DNA from: a virus
Lineage: Duplodnaviria; Heunggongvirae; Uroviricota; Caudoviricetes
IMG/VR virus record: IMGVR_UViG_2693429524_000004
Coordinates: 1-12,799 of that record
Reading direction: 5' to 3' (one strand)
Length of the DNA: 12,799 bases
Made by a program: the position numbers. Positions 3,001 through 6,000 of the stretch are shown piece after piece (position 1 is the first letter of the stretch; each line of letters begins with the position of its first letter).

Positions 3001-6000
3001 TCGGAAGGGCAGCCAGCAACAGGCCACCCTGCAATGGCATATTGCATGGTGTGCTCCTTATTTATACATAACGAAAACGCCTCGAGTGAAGCGTTATTGG
3101 TATGCATATAAAAAAGCCCTCACACTGGAGGGAAAAGAAGATTTCCAATAATCAGAACAAGTCGGCTCCTGTTTAGTTACGAGCGACATTGCTCCGTGTA
3201 TTCACTCGTTGGAATGAATACACAGTGCTTATTCGCAGCCTACATAATCATTCCGGTTATTATTACCATTTCAATATCACTATCTTTCATAATGATTGGA
3301 GTTGAGTTATCAACTTTACTTTTACTCCATTTTCCTGCATCAGTTTTTACCGCTCCACAATAAGAAAGCCAATCATCATCACAATGTTCTGGATCACTAA
3401 TTCTGACAAGAACACGTGATAGTGCTTTTTCGATACTTTCATCACAATTAGCATTTGTGTAATTGCCGTGAGACAATTTCAAATCGTTAACTTCATCTTC
3501 ATTGGCATCAAAAATATAGATTTCAGTCGACTCTGGAACATTTTCATAAACCATTAAAACTTTCATTTTTACCCCATATTGTTTATGCCAAAAATAAAGG
3601 CCACCATCAGGCAGCCTTGTTGTAAATGTTGCAGGTATCAAGTAAGTAATTAGATGGAGCGCCATAAATTATGAATTCATCGTTTGTCGGGTCCATCTCT
3701 TGGCCTATTGCCATTCTTGCGTCAGTGTCATCAGAGGCGAAGCATAAAACAGCCCACGCACCCATTGTTTTAAAAAGAACTGCAATTGGCTGTGGTTTTA
3801 CTGAATTTGCGTTAGCGCGAAAATCACAAATCGCACTTTCATGAAATTCCATATCTCAACTCAATCGTAATAAGCTGGAATTGATTTTCCGCGTTGTTTC
3901 TGGCGGCCTGAGCAAGTCACACCCATTTCACTGCGTGGCTTGCTGTAGTAAATACGGTTCTGTTTACGCTCGACTTCTTCTGCCTTCTTGCAGCGAAGGC
4001 TTCCGAGTGATATTGCTTTTTCAGAAAGGCTTAAACGTTTTCTCGGGGCTTCCTGAACAGGTTCCTCACTGTCTGTGCCGAAGATCGAATCGATGATGTT
4101 GCATATAGCATCACGCTCGATAGCCAGCTTTCTGCGCCGCTCATGACGGCGAGTTTTGGCATTTCCTGCAAATGTTGATTTCCCGCACACGATTACCGTC
4201 ATGATATTTTCCTCATGTGAAATGGCTTTGGTGGTGATGCGCCAGGTGCTGATCTTCTGGTTGCTGTCGTTGCAGCTGCAATTCACATCACCGCCAAACC
4301 CATCTCGTTTGGTATCTGTTTGCGCTTTGTCAGCGCCCCATCGAAGTTAAAGAGCCTGCCAATCTGTTCCGTTTGGCTTCCAGCTTCCTGCTGATGGCGA
4401 TAATAATGAACCAATGGTTCGATATTATCAAGAACTAATGGTACGAAAATTTTGTGATTTATTAACTCTACGAAATATGATTTTGATATATAAGGAAATT
4501 TATTTTTGTAAATGTTGCGGATGAAGGTTATGCGGCAGGGATCAGAATTTCGTGGTTTAGCAAGTTGTATCTATCAATTTTTCAATAAATACAATTGGTT
4601 ATGGTGTTATTAGGTGTGGCGAACGTGAGGCAAAGAAAACCCGGCTCGGTGGCCGGGTTGATGATTAGCGGTGTGGCCTTGAGCGATAATGCTCACACAC
4701 ATGTTCAAGATTTCCATGCCTTATCCGTTCATAGGCATTCACATGAACTTCTCGATCGAATTGGTCATTCAAATTGTATGTAGACATCTGTGTTTTCTCA
4801 TATTGGCGGCAGCCCTACAACCGCTTGAAAAAATGTACCAGACGCGCTAAGGTTACATCGCAAATATTGTGTACCTTAACAAGGGCTCCTTTTGGAGGCT
4901 CTGGTTAAACAGCATCAATGTCGGACTGGGGAGTTGGACATTGTGCTGAATGCTTTTGCATTATTGAGGCCGAACGTAAACCTTCAGAATTGAAGAGATG
5001 CGTTCGGCTTCTTCGTTTGTGATATCGTTAGGAATGCCTTTAATCGTTACTGTAACCCCTGATTCAGGTCGAAGAACTACTGGAAGATCATAGGTATGAA
5101 GTGCATTAGCCTTGCCTTCGACTTTTGTTGGTTCGCCAGCCAAATCTTTTTCCTCACTGGATTCTTTGTCAATCGGAGTGTATGGGATTTCTTCACCAGA
5201 CTGGAAAGCTACAAACTTTTTGATTGCACTTTCCATGCGGCTTTTATATGCAGTAATGCTGCTGTCGCTAGGCTTCGGCTCAGTTGCGTTGATGTATCGC
5301 TCGGCAAGCTCATTCACATCAAGCTGAGTAACATCACCCATTTCCTCTTCTTGGACTACCGTTAAGAGGCGAGCGGATGAGTTTTTTAAATTTCGAGCGG
5401 TGGCCTCCTTCATTATGTTCAGCGACATAAGCTCTTCAAGGAAGTCCTTGAATGCCTGCACGCTAACGTTTGACTTTGCCATTTGCTCTCTCTCTAAGTT
5501 ATTGACTCAGATCGAGTTTATCCAGGAATTGATTTGCATGCAAGACTCAAGTCTTGAGAATTTCCGTTCAAGATCCACTCTCAATAAAAAAGGCCGCACC
5601 TCTGCGACCTTTCATCTCCTAAATCTATTTCTCTTACCTAAAGAAACAGCAGGCTGGGTCAGCCCTAACAACTTCAAGCGCATCAGTCAGCGAAAGTTCA
5701 GTACTGTACTGATGCCATTTCATATCCTTCCGCATCCAATAGATTTTCCATCTATCCAGAGAACGTATGTACTTGATTCTTGCTGATGGCAGGATGTTTG
5801 TTTCACCTGGGTTGCCCTGCCACACGGGGCGCTGTTCGCCGATATCTATCGTTTGGTCATTGATGCTATAAACAATATCCAGTTCATTGCGGATATGTTC
5901 AGGCGGCCTTATGCTTTCAATGAATTGGTGAACTTCTTTTTTGACCGCTTGATATTCAAGGTCAGTGAACGCCATCTATCCTCCTCACCCAAACGTTTCT

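Follow-up and report, generated by a model that had tools for sequence, protein, structure and literature searches.

The operators of the Shiga-toxin (Stx) phage 933W are the best described counterpart of the DNA considered here. PMC3317979 (Bullwinkle et al. 2012) presents five natural 933W operators of 15 bp, symmetric about a central base pair, in which positions 2-5 are conserved (G, A/T, A, C) and positions 4 and 5 are invariant; position 6 of the half-sites is T in 7/10 and C in 3/10. One OR2 half-site is without the G at position 2, OL2 carries non-consensus bases at 3' and 6', and OR1, which has T at positions 3 and 3', is the natural site of highest affinity (PMC3317979). There is no OL3 in 933W, and its CI repressor is non-cooperative on adjacent sites (PMC3317979, PMC5977221). 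Phage lambda, in contrast, possesses three 17-bp operators per side and employs cooperative CI binding as well as looping between oL and oR. In 933W, the oL-oR loop reportedly has no role at pRM, to judge from the title of a 2011 paper by Bullwinkle and Koudelka.

Here, we compare these systems with a 12,799-nucleotide stretch of DNA from a virus of the Caudoviricetes (IMG/VR record IMGVR_UViG_2693429524_000004, positions 1 to 12,799; hereafter, the window), in which the cI-cro intergenic region and the candidate pL region share a 9-mer, GTACGAAAA, and the latter region carries a 13-bp palindrome, GAACCAaTGGTTC. These motifs are almost certainly parts of the characterised 15-bp operators of 933W CI, three at oR and two at oL. 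The preliminary description of the window had considered the operator set unresolved; on the contrary, the GenBank records of 933W and phi24B annotate it, and its biochemical characterisation has been published (PMC3317979; PMC5977221). On sequence grounds, the window holds the immunity region of 933W (imm933W), the operator set is already known, and the switch is an ordinary genetic one. The observations that carry this assignment are the identity of CI, Cro and oR with those of 933W, the orthology of oL, the enrichment of the operator dyad and the conservation of the operator core.

The 933W operators in the window

The cI repressor gene (6036-6743, minus strand) encodes 235 residues, every one of which (235/235) is identical to 933W CI (AAD25430, translated from AF125520), and thus keeps S41, K42 and K46, the base contacts discussed in PMC3317979. 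The cro gene (6822-7049, plus strand; 75 residues) gives Pfam helix-turn-helix (HTH) matches and likewise encodes a protein identical to its 933W counterpart (75/75). The DNA from cI through oR to cro is 99.2% identical to that of 933W (AF125520 / NC_000924) and its many relatives; within the 106 bp around the cI-cro intergenic region, only positions 6784 and 6791 differ from 933W, both between OR2 and OR1. The 933W operator set, which is also that of phi24B, Min27 and other imm933W phages, has the same spacing as the window, with 9 bp separating OR1 from OR2 and 17 bp separating OR2 from OR3.

With an offset of +2029 relative to the 933W locus (L001), transfer of the AF125520 annotation of 933W places the three right sites in the cI-cro interval of the window, and their sequences are those of 933W base for base. 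OR1 (CGTACTGAAAGTACG, 6792-6806) corresponds to 'operator oR1' (L001 4763-4777) and lies directly downstream of the pR -10 hexamer, over the expected start. It is the dyad CGTACT-gaa-AGTACG that the preliminary description had located correctly; OR2 and OR3 had been overlooked. OR2 (AAAACTTTCAGTTCA, 6768-6782; 'operator oR2', L001 4739-4753), whose sequence is identical in 933W and Salmonella phage SF6, occupies the spacer of pR, a plus-strand promoter (TTGCAA-16-CATAAT, 6763-6790) for which the promoter scan coincides exactly with the AF125520 pR (L001 4734-4761). The left half of OR2, AAAAC, has A for G at position 2, and the remaining 9/10 half-sites in the window fit G-W-A-C. OR3 (TGAACCATGAGTACG, 6736-6750; 'operator oR3', L001 4707-4721), which matches the dyad pattern considered below, overlaps the cI start codon (6743-6741) directly downstream of the -10 hexamer of the cI maintenance promoter, pRM (pM). 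The latter is placed at 6751-6778 on the minus strand by transfer of the AF125520 annotation (L001 4722-4749), where it is labelled putative; its -35 side is overlapped by OR2, and with this putative promoter the cI mRNA would be leaderless or nearly so.

On the left, the window aligns base for base with the oL of 933W, from just past the pL start to the terminator, and the OL1-OL2 pair is placed as in 933W relative to pL and tM. OL1 (TGAACCAATGGTTCG, 4407-4421) is orthologous to the 'OL1 repressor binding site' of phi24B (TGAACCAATAGTTCG, EF517298 1-15), with which 933W is identical in sequence; relative to 933W, A is replaced by G at 4416, position 6'. It holds the 13-bp palindrome at 4408-4420, the position given for it previously. 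OL2 (AGAACTAATGGTACG, 4431-4445) is orthologous to the phi24B 'OL2 repressor binding site' (AGAACTATTGGTACG, EF517298 25-39) and differs from 933W only in the central base, 4438, T to A; its non-consensus bases at 3' and 6' fit the description of OL2 in PMC3317979. The spacing of 9 bp is common to EF517298 and the window, with one change in the central region of each window site. Both changes relative to 933W are non-core. The previous assignment of the two regions to the oR and oL of a CI/Cro switch is borne out.

The two left sites are embedded in a predicted pL promoter on the minus strand (4403-4431), for which a consensus scan gives a -35 hexamer TTGATA (4431-4426), a 17-bp spacer and a -10 hexamer CATTAT (4408-4403). 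OL1 occupies the spacer, from which it extends across the first two -10 bases, in agreement with the earlier placement of the palindrome in the pL spacer, and OL2 adjoins the -35 hexamer with an overlap of one base. Beyond the promoter, the initial transcribed sequence CATCAGCAGGA, which we take to be a marker of the lambda pL start, aligns with the leader just past oL1 in lambda and 933W; pL transcription would therefore begin near 4395.

The recognition unit and its conservation

The 9-mer had been regarded as a recognition motif shared by both regions, and the palindrome as separate from it. Neither view is retained, as both are pieces of one 15-bp dyad family, of which the palindrome represents the OL1 core. 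The copy reported at 4441-4449 (plus strand) is correct and comprises OL2 positions 11-15 (GTACG), so that the right half-site of OL2 opens the 9-mer, and four flanking A's outside the operator. The second copy (plus strand), given as 6803-6811, is at 6802-6810 and consists of OR1 positions 11-15 followed by an A-run that leads to the cro Shine-Dalgarno sequence AAGGA; this tail is part of the cro leader and not of the 15-bp site. The 9-mer thus combines the GTACG half-site common to OL2 and OR1 with flanking A's that are unrelated to it.

GTACGAAAA occurs twice in the window against 0.09 expected, and two matches are reached in 1/200 shuffles, whereas the dyad GWAC-N5-GTWC is matched four times in 12.8 kb against 0.44 expected, and four matches are reached in 0/200 shuffles. 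All four dyads fall within the two regulatory regions, at 4408-4420 (OL1), 4432-4444 (OL2), 6737-6749 (OR3) and 6793-6805 (OR1). The dyad describes the motif better than the 9-mer, though the 9-mer is itself non-random. In a scan with a half-site position weight matrix (PWM), the five operators are ranked at the top with scores from 12.3 to 17.8, OL1 being first and OR2 fifth, and the next site in the window reaches 9.8.

Conservation was examined among 80 viral contigs that encode a CI 98-100% identical to that of the window, together with 933W, phi345, phi24B, 32deltatox and Salmonella phage SF6; the window and these 85 loci make up 86 sources, with 75 relatives having the oL pair and 42 distinct oL sequences. 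The layout OR3-17-OR2-9-OR1 is present in 86/86 sources and the OL1-9-OL2 pair in 76/86, the remainder being mostly loci that end short of oL. Among the 42 distinct oL sequences, G-W-A-C is maintained at core positions 2-5 and 2'-5' with a single exception, the OL1 of SF6, in which 3' is T and not A; variation is seen at positions 6-8, between the operators and in the flanks. The 9-mer, for which conservation among relatives with the same repressor had been put forward as a check, behaves differently at its two locations. At OR1, GTACGAAAA is present in 83/86 sources, its A-run being kept because it belongs to the leader to the cro Shine-Dalgarno sequence. The tail after the GTACG of OL2, in contrast, reads AAAA in no more than 7/75 relatives; most, 933W among them, have AATT, and others AAAT or AGAT. 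Hence, the 9-mer is not conserved at oL.

GTACGAAAA could also be envisaged as a functional 9-bp element, whether a longer form of the operator half-site or the target of some other factor common to pL and pR. Its two exact copies exceed expectation, each is found where an operator ends on its promoter-distal or downstream side, and the site size of 18 bp in hydroxyl-radical footprints (PMC3317979) brings flanking bases near the protein. However, the relatives in which the OL2 tail varies have a CI 98-100% identical to that of the window (88% in SF6), no A-run is common to the sequences that border the remaining eight half-sites on the outside, and the A-run at OR1 is a spacer to the cro Shine-Dalgarno sequence. 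The variation of the tail rules out the 9-mer as the recognition unit, and a functional element of this kind is very improbable.

Equally slight is the likelihood of a third left site, OL3, around TACGAAA, which would give a lambda-like arrangement of three plus three operators. This string is present on the plus strand near oL as previously reported, but at 4469-4475 and not at 4470-4476. Its context CTACGAAA is similar to GTACGAAA, with which OL2 and OR1 end, and the right half-site of the candidate would fall 27 bp from the OL2 centre. Nevertheless, the corresponding 15-mer at 4458-4472, TTTATTAACTCTACG, is without a left half-site; no site above a PWM score of 3.9 is found across 4446-4640; and in relatives with the same CI the segment is replaced by GCAGCGAGA, CTTAATGAG or TTTATTAGA. 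A third oL dyad occurs neither in the window nor in any relative with a recovered oL (75/75), in line with the published 933W work, which describes no OL3 (PMC3317979, PMC5977221). The PWM scan and the poor conservation together rule out an operator at 4469-4475, and TACGAAA is a chance partial match without a dyad partner.

That the palindromes are RNA hairpins or intrinsic terminators instead of protein sites has next to no likelihood, for although a terminator scan lists 4420-4408 and 6806-6792 (minus strand) as stem-loops with T-rich tails, position and stem strength rule this reading out: the stems span no more than 5-6 bp, of which 3 are G-C pairs, and they are located within promoters or before them and not at transcript ends. 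Moreover, the dyad is present five times, its major-groove positions being conserved and its centres variable, as is characteristic of sites for a dimeric HTH protein.

Certain points weigh against the assignment of the five sites to 933W-type operators. The PWM was built from the five operators themselves, which renders their top ranks partly circular; independent support comes from the search with the dyad pattern and from the external annotations. The pL hexamers and start are predicted from the consensus scan and the homology to the lambda leader, and the two oL alleles of the window, G4416 and A4438, are absent from 933W, so that binding would have to be retained at these altered sites. 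Conversely, every statement on the operators in PMC3317979 fits the parsed 933W sequences, and the parse is thereby cross-validated.

Working of the switch and comparison with described systems

The literature is the source for CI binding and its affinities, for non-cooperativity and for the lack of an OL3. CI binding and the repression of pR and pL have been described for 933W; as the oR sites of the window are identical to the tested ones and each oL site is one non-core base removed from its counterpart, the same behaviour may be expected here. In the proposed mechanism, a CI dimer would bind 15-bp rotationally symmetric sites of the form n-G-W-A-C-N5-G-T-W-C-n. Occupancy of OR1/OR2 and OL1/OL2 would occlude pR and pL and keep the lytic genes silent, and, in Stx phages, the toxin genes as well. 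OR3, which extends over the pRM start and the cI ATG, would mediate auto-repression of cI, and OR2, which adjoins the pRM -35 hexamer, could permit activation, as reported for 933W. Because 933W CI is reportedly non-cooperative on adjacent sites, the occupancy of each site would follow its own affinity, and non-cooperativity is expected for the CI of the window since the protein is identical to that of 933W. Cro, identical to 933W Cro, would use the same five sites as CI.

The gene order of the window, N - nutL - pL/oL - terminator - cargo - cI - pRM/oR/pR - cro - cII, is that of lambda. Further features common to both are a self-cleaving repressor of the LexA type (S24), operators that overlap pL and pR, and the homologous pL leader CATCAGCAGGA. 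However, lambda oL aligns with the window only in the transcribed leader, and the window sites are 15 bp with nGWAC half-sites, not 17 bp with the lambda half-site consensus (TATCACCGC). Moreover, oL has two sites only, the spacing within oR is unequal, OR1 is downstream of the pR -10 hexamer and OR3 lies over the cI start, while binding in 933W is reported to be non-cooperative and looping to be irrelevant to pRM. The preliminary description was thus right in suspecting an operator architecture unlike the three-plus-three arrangement of lambda, a difference already explained by the published 933W work (PMC3317979, PMC5977221). No new regulatory architecture is needed, because the motifs resolve into an experimentally characterised operator set.

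The Salmonella P22-like phage SF6 (MK972689) has the same five-site layout and core half-sites, and its CI is 88% identical with S41, K42 and K46 kept. It differs at outer positions, with OR1 as TGTAC...GTACA, OR3 with GTTCG, OL1 with GTACG and OL2 with GTACA, as well as in host genus and phage backbone.

The local novelty of the window is limited to its minor oL allele (G4416, A4438). With G4416, OL1 carries C·G at both 6 and 6' and becomes a perfect 13-bp palindrome. The 39-bp OL1-OL2 sequence of the window is absent from the 75 viral loci and has 0 exact matches in a scan of one genome per species. When 4380-4700 was compared with complete E. coli genomes, identity was 85-96% for those listed matches in which most of the query is covered, and a single complete E. 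coli record among the matches listed is 99% identical over its own aligned stretch. In a consensus context, C·G at 6/6' raises the affinity of 933W CI >2.5-fold (PMC3317979); because of this reported effect, OL1 of the window may be somewhat stronger. It is a tentative and rather doubtful suggestion from the sequence that it binds CI more tightly than 933W OL1, which would entail tighter repression of pL and a slight shift in the induction threshold.

Prophage induction is under the control of the 933W switch, as is toxin release in Stx phages. Recognition of imm933W in a prophage would predict its immunity group, cross-immunity with 933W-type phages and the easily triggered induction that has been reported.

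Flanking features and gene context

The 4400-4640 region is an AT-rich gap, with 24% GC around 4400-4499. Within it, an AT-rich block, TTGATATATAAGGAAATTTATTTTTG, at ~4483-4510, 40-65 bp upstream of pL, is kept in every imm933W relative compared, including Salmonella SF6; it is present in the window, L001, L085 and 40 other distinct oL regions, while the sequence between this block and OL2 varies. The block could bind a protein or act as a UP-like element or as a second promoter. At 4452-4481, the promoter scan lists a weak promoter-like site on the plus strand. The consensus of integration host factor (IHF), WATCAANNNNTTR, has no match in the AT-rich tract upstream of pL, and its sole match in the window, at 7541, is at chance level. 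In a search of the whole window against Rfam, the sole match is the cIII thermoregulator Lambda_thermo (RF01804) at 3002-3060 (minus strand; 88.5 bits against a gathering threshold of 50), which overlaps the start of the kil/cIII region in the pL operon; nothing is matched at oL or oR.

An intrinsic terminator at 4638-4659 (minus strand), found by the terminator scan, aligns with the annotated tM of 933W (L001 1847-1868); located immediately upstream of oL, it terminates leftward transcription of cI and the cargo. The open reading frames and their Pfam matches describe a standard lambdoid early region, with cII at 7156-7455 beyond cro. The cargo between cI and tM comprises L0084, L0083, stk and L0081 in 933W; the window keeps the DUF3024 gene (Pfam; 5634-5975, minus strand), and a 173-residue protein of unknown function (4961-5482, minus strand; phrog_2602, no Pfam match) replaces the Ser/Thr kinase encoded by stk. 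As the distance between oL and oR ranges from ~1.6 to 3.1 kb among the relatives, the cI-tM interval is a hotspot of cargo swapping.

The window illustrates how backgrounds that differ in N, recombination and replication genes receive the imm933W module, which spans pL through cro, as one cassette. The N and replication genes of the window differ from those of 933W. The replication module consists of an HTH_36 initiator (7618-8415, plus strand) and a 626-residue Toprim/DnaB-like primase-helicase (8523-10403, plus strand), and it resembles those of Salmonella phage SF6 and E. coli 95NR1, not the O/P genes of 933W. The left arm (1023-3040, minus strand) carries a recombination module that is P22-like rather than of the lambda Red type; all on the minus strand, it contains an Abc2 anti-RecBCD homologue (1023-1319), an SSB-like protein (1343-1930), an AAA_24 ATPase (1927-2607) and a small recombinase-family open reading frame (2616-2816), followed by Kil (2801-3040). 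A mosaic joint lies near 4386, where homology to 933W stops a few bases past the predicted pL start, after CAGCAGGA. Farther along the pL leader, a nutL boxB-like hairpin (GCGCTGACAAAGCGC, 4322-4336, minus strand) has an exact counterpart within the nutL annotated in 933W and can be aligned with boxB of lambda; it is kept although N (113 residues, 3861-4202, minus strand; PF25694) shares only its arginine-rich N-terminus with the N of 933W.

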